Below are positions 50,442-57,415 of a stretch of 64,000 bases of DNA, one piece after another; the stretch's first letter is position 1; every line of letters begins with the position of its first letter. The notes under the pieces are model-generated. The model did not search any database. It saw nothing but the letters and a program-made list of their open reading frames with translations, and was not told the DNA's origin. Source of the stretch: Chlamydiales bacterium (lineage in GTDB: Bacteria; Chlamydiota; Chlamydiia; Chlamydiales; VFKH01). The stretch is from assembly GCA_031292375.1 (NCBI GenBank), contig JARLHF010000049.1, forward strand, positions 4,377-68,376, read 5' to 3'. The position numbers and the translations under genes are program-made.

Positions 50442-50483
50442 TATAAGAAATTGATTTTTGAACTTGTTTGTGTATATTAAGAT

Positions 50484-50556
50484 TGGACTGAGTAGGACTC
50501 GAACCTACGACCACCCGCTTAGAAGGCGGGTGCTCTATCCACTGAGCTATCAGTCC
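50484..50556 (-). tRNA. tRNA-Arg (UCU)
   Basis: GGACTGA acceptor, GCTC-AGTGGATA-GAGC D arm, CCCGC-CTTCTAA-GCGGG anticodon arm, GTAGG-TTCGAGT-CCTAC T arm; 73 nt; CCA not encoded. Confidence 0.95.
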
Positions 50557-50682
50557 AAGAGCGCTTATTCTATCCTCCTAGCCTCTTATTTTACAAGAGA
50601 GAATTAAAGAGAGCAATTCCTGAAAGCAATTTAAAAAAACATTGCAATATTGATTTCTAAAAAAAATAGCCGTTAACGATAA

Positions 50683-50730
50683 GAAAGCTCCTTGAATCCA
50701 AATACAAGGGGCATTATACAAGGAGCTTTC
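50683..50730. terminator. 12-bp inverted repeat downstream of small basic ORF
   Basis: gaaagctccttg ... caaggagctttc. Confidence 0.55.
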
Positions 50731-50812
50731 GCCCTAGGTATACATAAACAATTCTTGAGCTTGTTTGTGTATATATCCAGAACATGATTTGTAGGCTGAA
50801 GATCTTAAATTT

Positions 50813-50926
50813 CTATGCCGTTTCTTTTCCTTGTTTCTTTTCCTGCTTCTTGGCTTTGCGCTCTTTTGGAGTAAGTGCAGGCTTCTTCTTCTCTTCTTTA
50901 CGATGCTTTGTTACTTCTTTAGTCAT
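50813..50926 (-). CDS. 37-aa highly basic small protein (not in ORF track)
   Basis: AGGAGG RBS; MTKEVTKHRKEEKKKPALTPKERKAKKQEKKQGKETA. Confidence 0.75.
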   Translation of the reverse strand: MTKEVTKHRKEEKKKPALTPKERKAKKQEKKQGKETA

Positions 50927-51159: not shown

Positions 51160-51305
51160 TTTTACGCTCCTTGGTTAAGGGCGCGCGATTACATTATGTC
51201 TAATGTTTTTTATTTACAAAGTACATAGGATCTGATACAAGCTGTTGCTTTAAACTACCCGTATTGGTAGGGCTTTCTTAAGCAACTTGTTTTGGAGTAT
51301 ATATC

Positions 51306-51794
51306 GTGAAAAAGTTATGTCTTCTCTTCCTATCTACTAGCTTAGCATTTTCTTTCTCTCATCTCTACGCATCTGCATCCACTACATCTGTAATCACAAT
51401 GTCTGTGGCCCCCATCAATGAGCTTGCTATTTCAGGAGCCTCTACAACGCTTGCAATCACTAGCGCAACGGCAGGCACAGCTCCTGTTGATGCCGAGTCT
51501 AAAGGCCTAACCTATGCAATTACAACGAACCAAACTAACAAAAAAATCACAGGCTCTCTTGATTCTAACATGCCTTCTGGAACAACACTTCAATTAGTCC
51601 TAAATGCTCCAAGTGGAGCTACAAGCTCTGGCTCCCAAGCCCTTTCAACAACAGACATCTCTCTTGTAACGGGCATATCACACCTTGCGCAAGCAGGTCT
51701 TGGTATGACTCTAAACTTTGGCGCAACACCTGCAGCCGGAGTTATCTCTTCTTTTAACCGCACTGTTACTTTGACTCTTTTGGATGGTCCTTAG
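51306..51794 (+). CDS. Secreted pilin/fimbrial-like beta-sandwich subunit A
   Basis: Signal peptide; S/T/A/G-rich mature part; ITMSVAPINEL, YAITTN, MPSGTTL, RTVTLTL; GTG start. Confidence 0.65.
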   Translation: MKKLCLLFLSTSLAFSFSHLYASASTTSVITMSVAPINELAISGASTTLAITSATAGTAPVDAESKGLTYAITTNQTNKKITGSLDSNMPSGTTLQLVLNAPSGATSSGSQALSTTDISLVTGISHLAQAGLGMTLNFGATPAAGVISSFNRTVTLTLLDGP

Positions 51795-51908
51795 TACTTA
51801 CGCTCAATAGAATTAAATTAAAAATTTAATTTACAATCATTTCCGATTTGTGATAAGAATAATTTTATACGCGCATTGGACTTCTTGCATAATTTAGGAA
51901 AGATTGTA

Positions 51909-52394
51909 ATGAAAAATAAATTGTCTCTTACTTTGAGCACACTCTTATTTCTTACCTCTAACATCTATTCTTCAACTTCTACTACATCCGTAATCACAAT
52001 GTCTGTAGCCCCCATCAATGAGCTCTCTATTTCAGGCTCCTCTGCATCACTTACAATTAACAGCGCAACAGCAGGAGCATCTCCAAACTCAACTGGCTCT
52101 ACAGGTTTTACTTACGCTATTACTACAAACCAGGCCAACAAAAAAATTACAGGCTCAATTGACTCCAATATGCCATCTGGAACAACACTTAACATCATTC
52201 TCAATGCACCACATGGCGCTACAAGTGCAGGCGTTCAAGCTCTTTCTACAACAGCTACAACATTAGTTACTGGGATTTCAAAACTTGCACAAAGTGGACT
52301 TGCCATGACTCTTGGCTTTGCAACACAACCCTCTGCTGGAGTCATCAATTCTTTCAATCGTACAATCACTTTGACACTACTGGATGGCCCTTAA
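51909..52394 (+). CDS. Secreted pilin/fimbrial-like subunit B (paralog of A)
   Basis: About 74% identical to A over the 139-aa mature region by hand alignment; signal peptide from ATG 51909. Confidence 0.65.
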   Translation: MKNKLSLTLSTLLFLTSNIYSSTSTTSVITMSVAPINELSISGSSASLTINSATAGASPNSTGSTGFTYAITTNQANKKITGSIDSNMPSGTTLNIILNAPHGATSAGVQALSTTATTLVTGISKLAQSGLAMTLGFATQPSAGVINSFNRTITLTLLDGP

Positions 52395-55166
52395 ATTATA
52401 CGACAGCGCACCCTCGTCAATGAATTGGATCTTTCTTGATTTTTGTATTGCCTCAAACGAACAAGATTTCTTTTCTCCGGGGCGTATGTCGATGATACAT
52501 TCTCTTGCTTTTAATGAAACACCCTCTGGAAGTTCACATGAATGAATAATAACTTCCCATTGTCCTGGCCTTAAATGCTTAAAGACAAAAAGGCCTTGCT
52601 CGTTTGTTACCATCTGCATCTTCTCTTTTATTCTTATAGAACGAAGTACTATAAACGCCCTATGTACACCTTTTAATGCACCACTTTCACGGTCTATATA
52701 ACAAACTCTACCAGAAATTTCGGCCTCTTTAACCATTTGAATATTACAATTAGTTACCCTACCCTCTTGTACAGCAATTACCATGGGAAGTGGCTGTAAA
52801 GAAACAAAACCATCTAATTGCGCCTCCAAATTCAAGTAATAGTATCCAGCACCTAGATGAGAAAAACAAAAAGTCCCCCTTGAATCTGTTAAAGAGCGCT
52901 CTTGATTACACATTACACTTTTTCTAGCAATAGGAAAGCTGCCAGCTGAAACAATACCTTGAACTGTTCCTCCACTTTTCTTGCGTCCAATAGGAATATT
53001 TAAGGGAACTGTATAAGTAAGCAACATTTCTACTTCCGTAGATTGTTTTGTAGGAAATGCGACATGCCCAAAAGATGAATGAAAATAACGAGTAAAATCT
53101 TCTCTATTCCAAAATCCTTTTAATTTAAGTGCATGCTCGTTTGGAAAAACGTATTTTACTTCGCCGCTTGCAAAATTTCTCTTAAAATCTTTGGTACGCC
53201 ATGTATGCTCATAAAAGAGATTATAAAACCAATTCTTATAACCACAGAGAACCAAATTAACACCATAAACTTGTGCCCATTTAACACAATCCACAATCAT
53301 TTGGTATCCCTGCCTAGAATAAATAGCATACATTTCATATGAAGATGGCCTATAATGGATGTAGAGTTGGTAATTTTGCCAATGATGATCTTTGTTAAAC
53401 ACGCGTCTATTAATATGCTTTCCCTGCTCACAAACACCTTGCAGCATCCATTCACAGATAGTTTTATTAAAAACCAAGCTTAAATAATTGGTTGTATAGC
53501 TAATATCCTTCAATGGGTCCTTTACAACAGCATTATTATAAGAAAGAGATGCATAGATATCATATGGAAGAGGTGATGAGAGTGTAACCCATCTATTTTT
53601 ATCTCTGGTAGCTCGTTCTTTGTTGGGATCACGATCTAAATTATAACTGTAATAATTTTGAGAAATACTTGCTTGCACCCTTTTATAGATGGGAAAGCCA
53701 ATACTTGCATTGGTCTGTCTTGTATCACTGTAAAAGCCTACAAAACGAGGAGGTGCATAAATATTTTGAAACGTATACCAACACGACTTTAAAGGCTCTC
53801 CTTTTACATAAACATAAGTTGCATAGCGTGTTTTTTCATAACTAGAAGTTCCCTTACTTACAGCACATTCAGTGTCTATTTGAGCTTGCTTACAAAAAAA
53901 CAACTGACTTCTTGCTGAGTATGTATGCGCACTTCTTGGCTGATCTAATTGAAAGGCAGCCTGCTCACCTTGATCCGTCTTTAACTCACTCAAAGAGAAC
54001 CTACACCATTTAGCAGGCTTATATGCAGCATAAAAAGCGCCATTCTTTTCTGCAAAATAAGAAGAATCTTTAACATACATAGTGCCTACTTCAACAGGCC
54101 CAAAATAACCTGCATAACCAGCTCCCCAACCATAGCGAAAACTCATTGTCAATGGAGTCATCGTATAAATTCCATTACCAAGATAAATATTTTGTGCATG
54201 ATCACAGTAGCGAAAATAAGCATCTTCCTGCACGCATGTTAAGTCATAGGCAACATCTACTTGTTGAATAAATGGCGCTCGAAAATAGTAATCAATATGC
54301 CTATCCTTATTTTCATCCAAGTACCCACATCCTTGAGAGCCCACATAAACTTGTTTTTTTCCTCCATAAAATCCAGCTCCTAACTCAACTGAAGATGGAT
54401 AATAATTATAAATGTCATTTTTAGAATACCCTAAAGGGAACATATCTACAAGTGTTGTATGTGCAAAAACAACCTCCTTAGAACATATATCTAATACGTG
54501 CAAAGTTACAGTATGCGCTATATGGCACTTCACATTACGATCTGTATTCACTAGCACTTTTACACATCTTGCCTCTCCTGGATGTAATGTAATGCGCGGT
54601 GTTGGGCTAATATAGAGAGGAAAATGAAAGTGCTCTTTTGCAGTAATGCAAAGGTCGGCAGAAATATTTCCCCTGTTTTTCAAATAGAGTGTGATAATAT
54701 AACTCTCGCCAAGAAATCCATGTTTAGGAACATCTTCAACACACGCTTCTATTTCTGTTGTAGCCCCAATAATTATTTGAAACAAAGATTTTTCTATGAA
54801 ATTATGCCCTTCATCTTCTTTTAAAAAATAATAAAGGTCGTATATCTCGCTACAAGCACTTTTTGGAGCCTTTACTGCAACAAGTTGTAAAAAAGACTCT
54901 CCTGGCTCTAAAACAATTGGAGCAAATTCTTCTGGTATAACTGTCCAATCAGTAGGCGCTTCTATACCCCCTTTTAAACATACTTTTTTTTGAGAATCAT
55001 TCGTGATTAAAAAGCTTGCCGTTGCAACACCGCCACTTTCTATTTCTGTAACTTGTAAAGATTGTCTCTCTAAGCGAATGCCCTCATTTGAACCTGCAAA
55101 AATGTTCGTTAGAAACATGATACAAAATAAAAATAAACTGCTCACAAAGAAGCGTTGCAATTTCAC
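52377..55166 (-). CDS. 929-aa usher-like outer-membrane protein (N-terminal Ig-like domains, putative beta-barrel, two C-terminal prealbumin/carboxypeptidase-regulatory-like domains)
   Basis: Signal peptide; NEW3/COG1470-like N-terminus (FLITNDS, LKNRGN); aromatic-rich alternating strands; C-terminal TDSRGTFCFSHLGAGYY and TNEQGLFVFKHLRPGQW. Confidence 0.55.
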   Translation of the reverse strand: MKLQRFFVSSLFLFCIMFLTNIFAGSNEGIRLERQSLQVTEIESGGVATASFLITNDSQKKVCLKGGIEAPTDWTVIPEEFAPIVLEPGESFLQLVAVKAPKSACSEIYDLYYFLKEDEGHNFIEKSLFQIIIGATTEIEACVEDVPKHGFLGESYIITLYLKNRGNISADLCITAKEHFHFPLYISPTPRITLHPGEARCVKVLVNTDRNVKCHIAHTVTLHVLDICSKEVVFAHTTLVDMFPLGYSKNDIYNYYPSSVELGAGFYGGKKQVYVGSQGCGYLDENKDRHIDYYFRAPFIQQVDVAYDLTCVQEDAYFRYCDHAQNIYLGNGIYTMTPLTMSFRYGWGAGYAGYFGPVEVGTMYVKDSSYFAEKNGAFYAAYKPAKWCRFSLSELKTDQGEQAAFQLDQPRSAHTYSARSQLFFCKQAQIDTECAVSKGTSSYEKTRYATYVYVKGEPLKSCWYTFQNIYAPPRFVGFYSDTRQTNASIGFPIYKRVQASISQNYYSYNLDRDPNKERATRDKNRWVTLSSPLPYDIYASLSYNNAVVKDPLKDISYTTNYLSLVFNKTICEWMLQGVCEQGKHINRRVFNKDHHWQNYQLYIHYRPSSYEMYAIYSRQGYQMIVDCVKWAQVYGVNLVLCGYKNWFYNLFYEHTWRTKDFKRNFASGEVKYVFPNEHALKLKGFWNREDFTRYFHSSFGHVAFPTKQSTEVEMLLTYTVPLNIPIGRKKSGGTVQGIVSAGSFPIARKSVMCNQERSLTDSRGTFCFSHLGAGYYYLNLEAQLDGFVSLQPLPMVIAVQEGRVTNCNIQMVKEAEISGRVCYIDRESGALKGVHRAFIVLRSIRIKEKMQMVTNEQGLFVFKHLRPGQWEVIIHSCELPEGVSLKARECIIDIRPGEKKSCSFEAIQKSRKIQFIDEGALSYNLRAIQ

Positions 55167-55178
55167 TTCCGTTATTTT

Positions 55179-56012
55179 TTAACTTTCTGAGTCCTTGATA
55201 TCTAACGTATATTGGGTGCCAAACAAAGCCTTATCTCCCTGATCAAAAACAATGAGCGTCATATATTTTCCGGGTTGTAGATCAGAAATGTCTGGAGCAT
55301 ATCTGACAGAACACGTAGGATAAATGCGCCGCTTACAAAGCTCTGCTTTCTTGATGCACTTGCCTTGTAAATCAAACACTTCCATATGCATCTTGGGCTC
55401 CATTACAAGTGTACCTGTATTGAGCACATCAATAACGAGCAAAGTCTTTGCATCTTGCCTTACAAGTTCCTTACTAACAACTTTTAAATCGTACGCTCCA
55501 CTGCCTCGTATATTCGTGATGAGCTGGAAACCATATCTAACAACGGTTTGAACGTCAAGACTTTGTTCTTCTTTACTGCCTTGATTTACAACTTCATCTA
55601 TTGGCTCTATTAAAATTAATCCCCAATAAGTCCCCTGCAACAGGCTATCACAGGGCACTACAATTTTGTAATAAAAGTTGACTTGGCTACATGGTGGTAT
55701 TTTTAGCAATTCAGTGCTTAAATGCGTCCAAGGAGCATTAGAGCGCAGATGGCTCCCAGGATTTGAGTAAAACGTCTCGCCAGATGCATTATAAAGGTAA
55801 TCAGCAAGAGATACTTTGACACTTGCAACTTCATTTCCTGCATTAAAAATAGGAATAGAGCCTTCAATTACATTTCCAGGCAGTACATCTCTTTCAAATG
55901 TCATTACCTCCGGGATTTTTATTTGAGAGGCAAATATAGGAACTTCTATCAAAAAAAGCAAAATCCCTATACAAAAGAGGCGGACAGGAATTTTACACAC
56001 AAAATATAACAT
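55179..56012 (-). CDS. Secreted DUF916/PapD-like two-domain chaperone candidate
   Basis: Signal peptide; PGNVIEGSIPIFNAG, LRSNAPW, YKIVVP, GTYWGLILIEP, NTGT, RIYP, PGKY. Confidence 0.55.
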   Translation of the reverse strand: MLYFVCKIPVRLFCIGILLFLIEVPIFASQIKIPEVMTFERDVLPGNVIEGSIPIFNAGNEVASVKVSLADYLYNASGETFYSNPGSHLRSNAPWTHLSTELLKIPPCSQVNFYYKIVVPCDSLLQGTYWGLILIEPIDEVVNQGSKEEQSLDVQTVVRYGFQLITNIRGSGAYDLKVVSKELVRQDAKTLLVIDVLNTGTLVMEPKMHMEVFDLQGKCIKKAELCKRRIYPTCSVRYAPDISDLQPGKYMTLIVFDQGDKALFGTQYTLDIKDSES

Positions 56013-56508
56013 GTTTTCTCACAGGATATTTTTTCTCACCATCTTATCTGGATACTTCTTTTTTTCTAACCTTATTTTTTCAAATACTATCTTAGAACAC
56101 CCAGATGAGCATGTCCTTAACAACACATCTTCATTGACAATACACACAACAAATCCCCAGCCCCTAATCATCACTAGTTGCTTTGCAGGAAATGAACCCC
56201 GTCCTCTTTCTTCAACTACAGCAAGCTACACAATTACAAGTGATGCTCATAAGACGTGTAAAATTTCAGCTTTTCTAAATAACAGGATGCCGCAAAATAC
56301 ATCTCTTGCAATTCAGCTAGCAGCGCCTTCTGGAGCTCAAAGTACAGGCATGATAATGCTTTCTACTATTCCTCAAAACTTAGTACTTCACATTCCACCC
56401 CATACAAATGCTACACTACCCATTACCTATCTATTTTCCACCAAGTGCCAAGCAGGTATTCTCCCACTTACCACCAAAATGGTTACGTTCACCCTCGATA
56501 CAGAGTAA
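56011..56508 (+). CDS. Divergent third subunit C (minor pilin-like)
   Basis: Signal peptide. Shares with A/B: AG.EP, SYTITS, KISA...MPQNTSL, LAAPSGAQSTG..LST, AGI...VTFTL. Confidence 0.6.
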   Translation: MFSHRIFFLTILSGYFFFSNLIFSNTILEHPDEHVLNNTSSLTIHTTNPQPLIITSCFAGNEPRPLSSTTASYTITSDAHKTCKISAFLNNRMPQNTSLAIQLAAPSGAQSTGMIMLSTIPQNLVLHIPPHTNATLPITYLFSTKCQAGILPLTTKMVTFTLDTE

Positions 56509-56578: not shown

Positions 56579-57415
56579 ATGAAAAGCGTGAAAATTAAAG
56601 ATTTTTATATTGGATCCGCAACCCCTCTTGCCATTATGTCAGGTCCTTGCGTAATCGAAAGTGAAGAGCATTGCTTAAGAGCTGCGGAAACTTTAAAAAA
56701 TATTTTCTCTAAGCGTGATATAAATCTTATTTTTAAATCAAGTTACGACAAAGCAAACAGGTCAGCAAACGATACCTTTCGAGGTCCCGGCCTTCAAGAG
56801 GGCCTACGTATACTAGAGCGCGTACAAAAAGAGCTCGATTTGCCAATAATTACAGATGTTCACTCACCAGAAGAAGCAAAAATTGCAGGGGCTGTTTGCG
56901 ACATCATCCAAATTCCTGCTTTCCTATGCAGGCAAACAGACCTGATCCTTGCTGCAGGAGCCACCAAAGCTGCTATTAATGTAAAAAAAGGGCAATTTAT
57001 GGCTCCTTGGGACATGGGAAATGTTGTAGACAAACTTTTATCCACTGGTAACGACCGCATTATCTTGACAGACAGAGGCACATCTTTTGGCTATAACAAC
57101 TTGGTCTGTGATATGAAGGCAATTCCCATCATGCAAAAGTTTGGCTACCCAGTATGTTTTGATGCATCTCACGCTGTACAACTGCCAGGAGGCCTTGGTA
57201 AAAGCACTGGAGGCCAAAGAGAGTTCATTCCAACACTTGCAAAAGCTGCCATTGCTGCTGGCTGTAATTGCCTTTTTATTGAATCCCATCCAAGTCCAGC
57301 CAGTGCAAAAAGCGATGCCTCTAGCGTGCTTGACTTCAAAGACTTACCCTCGCTTCTTTGGCAATTAGAAATGCTTTATAAAACATGTCTACTTACTCCC
57401 CCGAAGGATCTGTGA
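56579..57415 (+). CDS. kdsA: KDO8P synthase
   Basis: GPCVIES, KSSYDKANRS, QIPAFLCRQT, KKGQF, RGTSFGY, FDASHAVQLPG. Confidence 0.97.
   Translation: MKSVKIKDFYIGSATPLAIMSGPCVIESEEHCLRAAETLKNIFSKRDINLIFKSSYDKANRSANDTFRGPGLQEGLRILERVQKELDLPIITDVHSPEEAKIAGAVCDIIQIPAFLCRQTDLILAAGATKAAINVKKGQFMAPWDMGNVVDKLLSTGNDRIILTDRGTSFGYNNLVCDMKAIPIMQKFGYPVCFDASHAVQLPGGLGKSTGGQREFIPTLAKAAIAAGCNCLFIESHPSPASAKSDASSVLDFKDLPSLLWQLEMLYKTCLLTPPKDL

Follow-up and report, generated by a model that had tools for sequence, protein, structure and literature searches.

The window analysed here, a 64,000-nucleotide stretch of contig JARLHF010000049.1 from a Chlamydiales bacterium, carries a block of five adjacent genes, subA, subB, big, mid, and subC, bordered on the left by tRNA-Arg(tct) and on the right by kdsA (Table 1). 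The preliminary description of this DNA had singled out the block as a set of signal-peptide genes for a candidate surface fibre, and its layout is confirmed by the open reading frames (ORFs) and the tRNA call. Each of the five products starts with a signal-peptide-like N-terminus composed of a basic n-region, a hydrophobic h-region, and small residues at the cleavage site. Hydrophobic windows occur at the N-termini only, all five reading frames are intact, and an LPxTG motif is present in none of the five proteins. Searches of the five proteins against Pfam and NCBIfam gave nothing at threshold, the only matches being weak transthyretin-like ones at the C-terminus of big. The source organism is an environmental chlamydia, and its assembly (1.96 megabases in 70 contigs) was obtained from a bioreactor metagenome. 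Chaperone-usher pili are thought to be largely proteobacterial, and to our knowledge no fimbrial system is known for chlamydiae.

Table 1. Genes of the candidate fibre cluster and its two borders, in positions of the window.
Feature	Position	Strand	Product or role
tRNA-Arg(tct)	50483-50557	-	left border of the cluster
subA	51306-51794	+	162 residues, candidate major fibre subunit
subB	51909-52394	+	161 residues, subA paralogue
big	52377-55166	-	929 residues, usher-like outer-membrane protein
mid	55179-56012	-	277 residues, two-domain periplasmic chaperone-like protein
subC	56011-56508	+	165 residues, divergent subunit paralogue
kdsA	56579-57415	+	right border, outside the system; translation reads as KDO-8-phosphate synthase

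The subA and subB proteins share 73% identity over 129 aligned residues (E 5e-64), or 74% over the mature length, and subC is a more distant paralogue with 38% identity to subA over 111 residues (E 7e-15). Ser, Thr, Ala, and Gly together make up 50.6% of subA and 51.6% of subB, and Trp is absent from all three proteins. These values agree with the earlier picture of two subunits, about 74% identical and rich in these four residues. The accompanying claim that the mature subunits are free of Cys holds for subA, whose single Cys lies inside the signal peptide, and for subB, which has none, but not for subC, which has three Cys in its mature part. The subA protein consists of a signal peptide of about 23 residues and a mature immunoglobulin (Ig)-like part of 139 residues. 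The mature forms of subA and subB begin with ...STTSVITMSVAPINEL and end in RTVTLTLLDGP and RTITLTLLDGP, respectively. In subA, we take the N-terminal extension STTSVITMSVAPIN as the putative donor strand, while RTVTLTL forms the C-terminal strand, and subB has both likewise. Conservation within a family of more than 140 proteins is strongest at the alternating start and the RTxTLTL end, both noted in the preliminary description, and these terminal motifs are therefore not due to chance. The family consensus of the mature N-terminus is x-T-A-T-Q-x-V-x-[FY]-x-V-x-A-[IV]-N, in which alternate positions are near-invariant (Q 92%, V 93%, F/Y 87%, V 94%, A 82%, and I/V 98%) and the positions between them are free. 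At the C-terminus, the consensus is [RK]-T-V-T-x-T-[IV] with two invariant Thr residues. Judged from the alignment, each end of the chain looks like a single strand that buries one of its faces, as in strand-exchanging pilins.

The AlphaFold2 model of mature subA, calculated from 119 sequences, is a seven-strand beta protein with a predicted local distance difference test (pLDDT) score of 95.4, and its first 14 residues lie outside the strands. The Foldseek list of PDB matches for this model consists mostly of donor-strand fibre subunits, namely CfaB, CS17, CsuA/B, FimF, FimG, FimA, the pilin domains of FimH and PapG, TLP-1b, TasA, and archaeal cannulae. When the 119 subunit-family members were compared with Pfam, no pilin, SCPU, Fimbrial, or WxL family was matched, the WxL check covering the 25 best-represented Pfam families over these members; a single member matches Fimbrial_CS1 with an E-value of 0.026, which is not significant. 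Two other candidate relations were rejected. The subunit profile picked out the Aeromonas protease chaperone ORF2 from the PDB at chance level (E 0.56), and a comparison of the subunits with four WxL domains by hhalign, in which the WxL alignment was shallow, gave no significant match.

When a profile of 54 mid homologues was compared with the PDB, the only match was EfmWxLIP1 (9i25 and 9i1y, E 3.7e-5), the next one having an E-value of 0.8. For a direct comparison, 39 DUF916/DUF3324 sequences from Bacillus, Listeria, Enterococcus, Lactococcus, and Carnobacterium were aligned, and hhalign matched mid to this WxLIP alignment with a probability of 93.4% and an E-value of 2.5e-7 over 228 columns, covering both domains and ending just ahead of the WxLIP membrane helix. 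On the strength of these profile comparisons, mid is a remote homologue of WxLIP (DUF916/DUF3324); the WxL/DUF916 clusters had at first been named as a Gram-positive analogue, and for mid the likeness has proved to be real homology. The Pfam models of WxLIP reach single mid homologues below threshold only, PF06030 in 6 of the 54 (best E 4.7e-4) and PF11797 in one, and the mid family is therefore unannotated. The DUF916 model of Pfam did not find mid in the window's own genome, so that the relation is visible only at the profile level. PapD_N is matched by only one of the 54 homologues, with an E-value of 0.018. The mid family is large: a HMMER search of 1.84 billion representatives assigns 8807 proteins to it at E<=1e-3, of which 799 remain when the cut-off is lowered to E<=1e-30.

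Beyond its signal peptide, mid has no hydrophobic window, and hence no membrane helix, and it also lacks a lipobox; we therefore expect it to be soluble in the periplasm. Its most conserved stretch, VQTVVRYGFQLITNI, which includes the invariant R159, aligns with the WxLIP motif QI-x-N-x-Y-A-Y-x-I-G-V. In EfmWxLIP1, the aligned stretch corresponds to residues 139-152, and the October 2026 preprint on ElrE places its donor strand at residues 141-152, the equivalence of the two numberings being assumed. The WxLIP protein ElrE has been established by experiment as a donor-strand chaperone of pilins, its fold resembles those of CsuC, CfaA, Caf1M, and EcpB, and the WxL pilus system was reported as confined to Bacillota (bioRxiv 10.64898/2026.10.17.759780). 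According to an earlier proposal, WxLIP lends WxL proteins a hairpin strand and so stabilises them (PMC10599100). The mid profile also gave a second, far more remote match (E 2e-11), which lies in a 518-residue frame at G401:C155:15223-15828 (-), in a Bacillota metagenome-assembled genome (MAG) that also holds locus L017; this frame may belong to a related but different system.

The public gene models of subA and subB (131 residues each) and of mid (241 residues) begin at internal Met codons. In these shortened models, the signal peptides are missing, as is half of the putative donor strand. The longer forms of the three proteins are real, because homologues retain the longer N-termini.

The AlphaFold2 model of big, based on a 45-sequence alignment, has a mean pLDDT of 86.6. 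In the model, the signal peptide is followed by two Ig-like domains (residues ~30-245), about 26 long strands (253-721), and two sandwiches (724-908) that are transthyretin-like. The strand region contains a single small insertion, formed by a helix (305-310) and a hairpin (316-334). Foldseek against the PDB placed FimD first (E 9.8e-14 over 818 columns), and more entries of FimD and PapC followed, with E-values of up to about 1e-11. TonB-dependent receptors, AlgE, and MtrB, which are barrels of other kinds, matched at about 1e-6, some 7 orders of magnitude more weakly than the ushers. The large protein, which had been called barrel-like from its sequence, is thus predicted to form a beta-barrel that has periplasmic Ig-like domains at its flanks, and it is matched best by FimD and PapC.

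At the sequence level, no Usher or PapC model matched any of the 45 big homologues or big of the window itself at E<=1. Pfam detects CarboxypepD_reg in all 45 homologues, NPCBM_assoc in 38, and weak porin or outer-membrane-protein barrel families (Porin_4, OMP_b-brl) in nine, and the big profile retrieved from the PDB only the flanking Ig or transthyretin-like domains and faint porin matches. The N-terminal Ig-like domains are of the CARDB/NPCBM_assoc type. The second of them (~150-228) can be aligned by hhalign with domain 1 of mid (E 4.2e-6 over 78 columns) and is without the 20-residue insert D-Y-x-F-x-A-D-G...R-S-N-A-x-W of mid. This match seems to reflect fold-family kinship, via a motif common to CARDB-like Ig domains, and not a chaperone module. 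The N-terminal pair of big was also considered as a full WxLIP-like module and rejected, as only the second domain aligns and the match to WxLIP itself is not significant.

The barrel of big could also be given a role in transport. It would then act as a porin-like barrel or one for uptake, or as a sheath that spans the envelope in the manner of MtrB or LptD, and mid and the small proteins would be accessory or binding components of a substrate transport system. MtrB indeed has the best template modelling (TM) score, TonB-dependent receptors and AlgE match at E ~1e-6, some family members show weak Porin_4, OMP_b-brl, and BBP2 matches, and the lack of a recognisable plug domain suits a transport barrel as well. 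However, the usher matches are far better (E 1e-13) and extend over the full length, periplasmic domains included, and the partner protein mid is homologous to a proven pilin chaperone. Moreover, up to nine subunit paralogues per locus suit structural or antigenic proteins rather than binding proteins, and no linked energising components, cytochromes, or polysaccharide or lipid genes were found in the loci examined. A transport system thus seems very unlikely.

The big protein contains 26 Cys residues. The usher-like proteins of the window genome and of several chlamydial families (loci L083, L088, L089, and L091-L093) have 17-29 Cys, those of other phyla 0-8, and those of other chlamydial families 2-6. 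The chlamydial outer membrane is cross-linked by disulfide bonds, and the high Cys content of big is possibly an adaptation to it. At its end, big is convergent with subB, the two genes overlapping by 18 nucleotides (52377-52394). The neighbouring genes mid and subC are divergent with overlapping start codons (56011-56012), and each promoter must therefore sit inside the other gene.

A word-based search with subA found 141 homologues with 40-55% identity, none with a Pfam domain, in Longimicrobium, Verrucomicrobiota, Aromatoleum aromaticum EbN1, and many metagenomes. At the Aromatoleum locus (ebA2787), two more subunit genes, a gene for 269 residues, and a gene for 920 residues accompany the one found; in Longimicrobium terrae, the companions of the subunit gene encode 262 and 857 residues. 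A locus scan with one genome per species yielded 63 loci. These come from Parachlamydiaceae, Nitrospirota, Verrucomicrobiota, Zixibacteria, Ignavibacteria, Atribacterota, a Bacillota MAG, Gemmatimonadota, Armatimonadota, Riflebacteria, Spirochaetota, Thermodesulfobacteriota, Bipolaricaulota, Krumholzibacteriota, and Marinobacterium. Co-occurrence was assessed with hidden Markov models built from the window proteins, and 48 of the 63 loci, which represent more than 12 diderm phyla, were found to have one or more subunits, mid, and big together, with few exceptions in this order and on one strand. In most of the remaining 15 loci, the contig ends beside the subunit gene. BamA is encoded in all four hosts whose envelope was in doubt (the Bacillota MAG, Atribacterota, Armatimonadota, and Bipolaricaulota), and these hosts therefore have an outer membrane. 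Among chlamydiae, mid is carried by 29 of 400 genomes (27 of 212 genera), and mid and big stand together in 15 of the 16 loci fetched, with 0 to 9 recognisable subunit paralogues. The joint occurrence of the genes, expected in the preliminary description for homologues of the set, is thus found both across phyla and within the chlamydiae.

Subunit genes also occur, singly or in pairs, at L024, L035, L052, and L062, with neither mid nor big in the available flanks. Those of L052 lie on the same contig as the complete cluster L039, a few kilobases apart. We regard the genes at these four places as orphan or satellite subunit genes.

In the protein tree, mid sequences group by phylum. All other phyla fall into one clade (Shimodaira-Hasegawa-like approximate likelihood ratio test, 91), and the chlamydial sequences form several deep lineages outside it, so that the system is old in this phylum and not a recent import. 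The GC content is uniform over the cluster and both flanks, and this flat profile, together with the deep branching of the chlamydial sequences, argues against a recent horizontal transfer.

The subA gene is covered by 100%-identical contigs in all four metatranscriptomes of the same bioreactor study. The covered stretches are 51267-51525 and 51550-51927, and one contig (51615-51927) spans subA into the first 19 nucleotides of subB. The RNA depth at subA is similar to that at the neighbouring KH-domain gene and kdsA. No RNA contig was found on big, mid, or subC in the four metatranscriptomes, which consist of low-depth, unstranded assembled contigs and do not imply that these genes are silent. 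RNA of subA without RNA of the machinery is what one would expect if subA were a major subunit produced in larger amounts than the proteins that assemble it. These observations bear on the view that the cluster is a decaying or silent island, acquired horizontally and without function in this chlamydia. Such an island would be in keeping with the adjoining tRNA gene and with the patchy distribution among the chlamydiae (29/400 genomes), mid being found in none of the four other genomes of the organism's family and in none of the listed genomes of 1.0-1.2 megabases. The five intact frames with their signal peptides, a GC content equal to that of the surroundings, the deep chlamydial lineages of mid, which argue against recent transfer, and the transcription of subA in situ all speak against decay, and we consider a functionless island extremely improbable.

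A polar donor-strand polymer requires one subunit type without a donor extension. The donor motif was scored, with a maximum of 6, in all 144 subunit-like ORFs of the fetched loci. Most of them, including the subA and subB homologues, score 6/6; subC scores 1/6, and its mature N-terminus, NTILEHPDEHVLNN, has no alternation and contains Pro. Most loci with several detected subunits have one paralogue that aligns only from the first core strand on, and this paralogue usually directly adjoins mid or big. In 29 loci, most of them seemingly with a single subunit, a gap of about 550 base pairs separates the subunit gene from mid, and 27 of these gaps hold an ORF of 150-260 residues from stop to stop. 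Twenty-five of the gap ORFs align as one family, in which the mature protein begins 1-3 residues ahead of the first strand and the end reads ...TYS-x-T-I-I-F-T-V-V-D. This family aligns with the subunit family from the first strand through the last (118 columns), with modest support (hhalign E-value 0.004, probability 8%), and the gap-ORF family is probably a distant subunit paralogue that has no donor strand. As far as the alignments tell, the usual operon appears to encode a subunit, an extension-less subunit, a chaperone-like protein, and a usher-like protein. The window cluster has the same four roles and a duplicate major subunit, with its genes rearranged over both strands. In this arrangement, subC is a candidate tip or initiator subunit; the recurrent class of paralogues lacking the donor motif strengthens the earlier suggestion that the third subunit is a minor or tip component.

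The gap gene of the other phyla (loci L008-L065, for example L008:7562-8035) encodes about 160 residues with a signal peptide, and its mature form starts with x-D-I-x-A-T-G-x-W.

Our favoured reading, with a probability of roughly 60%, is that the products of the five genes form an assembly line of the chaperone-usher type that builds a thin fibre on the cell surface, with parts that lie outside the annotated chaperone-usher families. The conserved gene set, the homology between mid and WxLIP, and the usher-like domain order of big support this proposal. It is further supported by the predominance of pilins in the fold list of subA, by the conserved alternating extension that lies outside the strands of the model, and by up to nine subunit paralogues in chlamydial loci, as pilus operons often have. 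The recurrent extension-less paralogue would answer the need of a polar donor-strand polymer.

We infer that the subunits polymerise, that mid complements them by a donor strand, and that the fibre passes through big. In such a pathway, all five proteins would first cross the inner membrane via Sec. Soluble mid would then bind the newly exported subunits and complete their Ig-like fold with its own strand around R159. Next, mid would hand the subunit over to big, whose Ig-like domains would dock the complexes and whose barrel of about 26 strands would let the fibre through. Donor-strand exchange would take place as the extension of the incoming subunit (I/V-x-M/F/Y-x-V-x-A/P-I-N) displaces the strand lent by mid from the groove of the subunit before it. 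Since subC has the fold but no donor extension, it could occupy the distal end only and would likely be the first (tip) subunit. Because subA is the only gene seen as RNA, it is taken as the bulk subunit and subB as its variant, and the two may serve as alternative major subunits. The fibre would be located on the chlamydial cell surface, where one may guess at a role in attachment to host cells.

Several results weigh against a fibre assembled in this way. The proposed fibre is deduced from genes, monomer models, and RNA contigs, and the last are low-depth assembled contigs that carry no strand information. The monomer model of subA is compact and confident, and its groove may be open or closed. 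Its Foldseek E-values are all weak, the best being 1.3e-3 for CfaB, and the TM-scores reach 0.54 at most. Of the donor-strand subunits claimed at the outset, the conserved alternating extension and the pilin-like fold thus stand, but the resemblance in fold is weak. All members of the three families fall short of the Pfam models for Usher, PapD, Fimbrial, and WxL, and the subunits resemble WxL domains only in the C-terminal T-x-T-x-x-D-x-P motif. In the model of big, no plug domain is recognisable, and there are two N-terminal domains, not one. The highest target-normalised TM-score to big, 0.44, belongs to the 26-strand MtrB. The TM-scores to ushers are low (0.29-0.36; FimD 0.29-0.33), which is expected because these are multi-domain proteins with mobile domains.

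The same machinery might instead work without polymerisation, with mid acting as a chaperone and big exporting the subunits, which would stay monomeric on the surface or form a loosely packed coat there. What the parts are points to a chaperone and a pore and is no proof of a polymer. The compact subunit model (pLDDT 95) and the weak pilin fold matches are compatible with a monomer, and the earlier static-platform model of WxL and WxLIP proteins (PMC10599100) shows that a non-fibre reading was long plausible. However, monomers or a coat would leave the conserved alternating extension, and a paralogue lacking exactly that extension, without an obvious role. The related WxL system, moreover, has proved to be a donor-strand pilus, and the static model was overturned (bioRxiv 10.64898/2026.10.17.759780). 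We consider export without polymerisation unlikely, and the proposed fibre is compared below with known donor-strand systems.

The WxL pilus (Enterococcus faecalis elrABCDE, with the chaperone ElrE and the pilins ElrC and ElrD) shares with the window cluster a chaperone that is homologous to mid over both domains and whose donor-strand region aligns with the most conserved strand of mid. Both systems have small secreted subunits with an alternating N-terminal extension and a C-terminal T-x-T-x-x-D strand, a chaperone gene in the cluster, and one subunit type suited to the tip. On the other hand, 96.7% of the WxL chaperones have a C-terminal membrane helix, whereas mid is without such a helix and should be soluble. 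The hosts of the WxL pilus are monoderm and those of window-type clusters diderm. WxL pilins carry two W-x-L motifs; the window subunits have no W-x-L and no detectable WxL-domain similarity. Finally, WxL pili are anchored by LPxTG and sortase, in place of which the window cluster has an outer-membrane usher-like protein of about 900 residues.

The classical chaperone-usher pili (Fim with FimC, FimD, and FimA-H; Pap with PapD and PapC) follow the same gene logic of subunit, two-Ig-domain chaperone, and usher. In its model, big has the usher order of one or more periplasmic N-domains, a large barrel, and two C-terminal sandwiches, and the subA model overlaps FimF and FimG with a TM-score of about 0.5. 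In contrast, the Pfam families of the classical systems (Usher PF00577, PapC_N/C, PapD_N PF00345/PapD_C, and Fimbrial PF00419) matched none of the scanned members of the window families at a significant level. The classical usher barrel has 24 strands and a plug, whereas the model of big shows about 26 strands and no recognisable plug, and big differs further in its two CARDB/NPCBM_assoc-type N-domains and its transthyretin-like (CarboxypepD_reg) C-domains. Among the archaic and alternative pili (Csu and CupE; CFA/I, CS1, and CS17) are the best fold matches of subA, namely CfaB, CS17, and CsuA/B. Pili of the Csu and CFA types are thin fibres with one major subunit and a tip. Their tip is a two-domain adhesin, whereas the tip candidate of the window is a single-domain paralogue without a donor strand, and the window subunits have no sequence relation to the SCPU or CS1 families.

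Donor-strand Ig-like subunits also build the Pam pili of the candidate phyla radiation (CPR; PMC13278184) and the TLP-1a/b fibrils from pond water (PMC11494351), which were both found by structure in lineages without annotated pilus genes. The TLP-1b structure (PDB 9ikk), with 237 residues, matches the subA model with a TM-score of 0.52 and an E-value of 0.026 at 10% identity. Pam pilins are reported as exclusive to the CPR (PMC13278184), and no usher-like outer-membrane protein is described for the Pam and TLP-1 fibres. A described diderm WxLIP/usher system or a chlamydial chaperone-usher pilus was not found in the literature.

Donor-strand assembly by a chaperone and an usher is known; what is new here is an intact and expressed copy of a donor-strand-type chaperone/usher set in a phylum without known pili. 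A broader proposal, to which we give somewhat less than even odds, is that the cluster represents a third, ancient, and very widespread branch of donor-strand systems in diderms. This branch would be characterised by a WxLIP-type chaperone in soluble form, an usher that has about 26 strands but no plug and forms a sequence family of its own, a new pilin family, and a tip paralogue without a donor strand, and the Gram-positive WxL pili would be its derivative, without an outer membrane, or its sister. The window cluster would then encode the first chlamydial pilus, located on the infectious particle and diversified under host pressure. By joining a WxLIP-type chaperone with a usher-like outer-membrane pore, the cluster, which is common yet unannotated, is a candidate evolutionary link between Gram-positive and Gram-negative donor-strand assembly. 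If the broader proposal is true, the chaperone-pilin principle of the WxL system is not confined to Bacillota. For environmental chlamydiae, an expressed fibre whose subunit families expand would add a new factor to their contact with host cells, and culturable carriers of the gene set are available in Aromatoleum aromaticum EbN1 and Longimicrobium terrae. Three new protein families can be defined from these data, and the public gene starts need correction.

Some minor observations concern the DNA to the left of subA. A scan of the 750-base-pair spacer 5' of subA with Rfam found the tRNA only, and a scan for promoter and terminator consensus sequences gave nothing exceeding the shuffled expectation. 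An ORF of 37 codons (50816-50926, -) lies behind a strong AGGAGG ribosome-binding site and encodes a very basic, Lys/Glu-rich peptide, MTKEVTKHRKEEKKKPALTPKERKAKKQEKKQGKETA. RNA contigs of two runs cover 50652-50822, just downstream of this ORF, and a third contig overlaps in part. About 100 nucleotides 5' of subA, at 51171-51205, lies the 35-nucleotide sequence TTGGTTAAGGGCGCGCGATTACATTATGTCTAATG, an exact second copy of which is present in the genome at G000:C33:7330-7364 (-) with unrelated flanks. RNA contigs of 347-403 nucleotides from three runs carry TTGGTTAAGGGCGCGCGATTACATTATGTCTAATG with flanks unlike those of the window. Since their trailing flank, AAGATTTAAGAATAAACTTCAATTCC, matches the copy on C33, that copy is probably the transcribed one.

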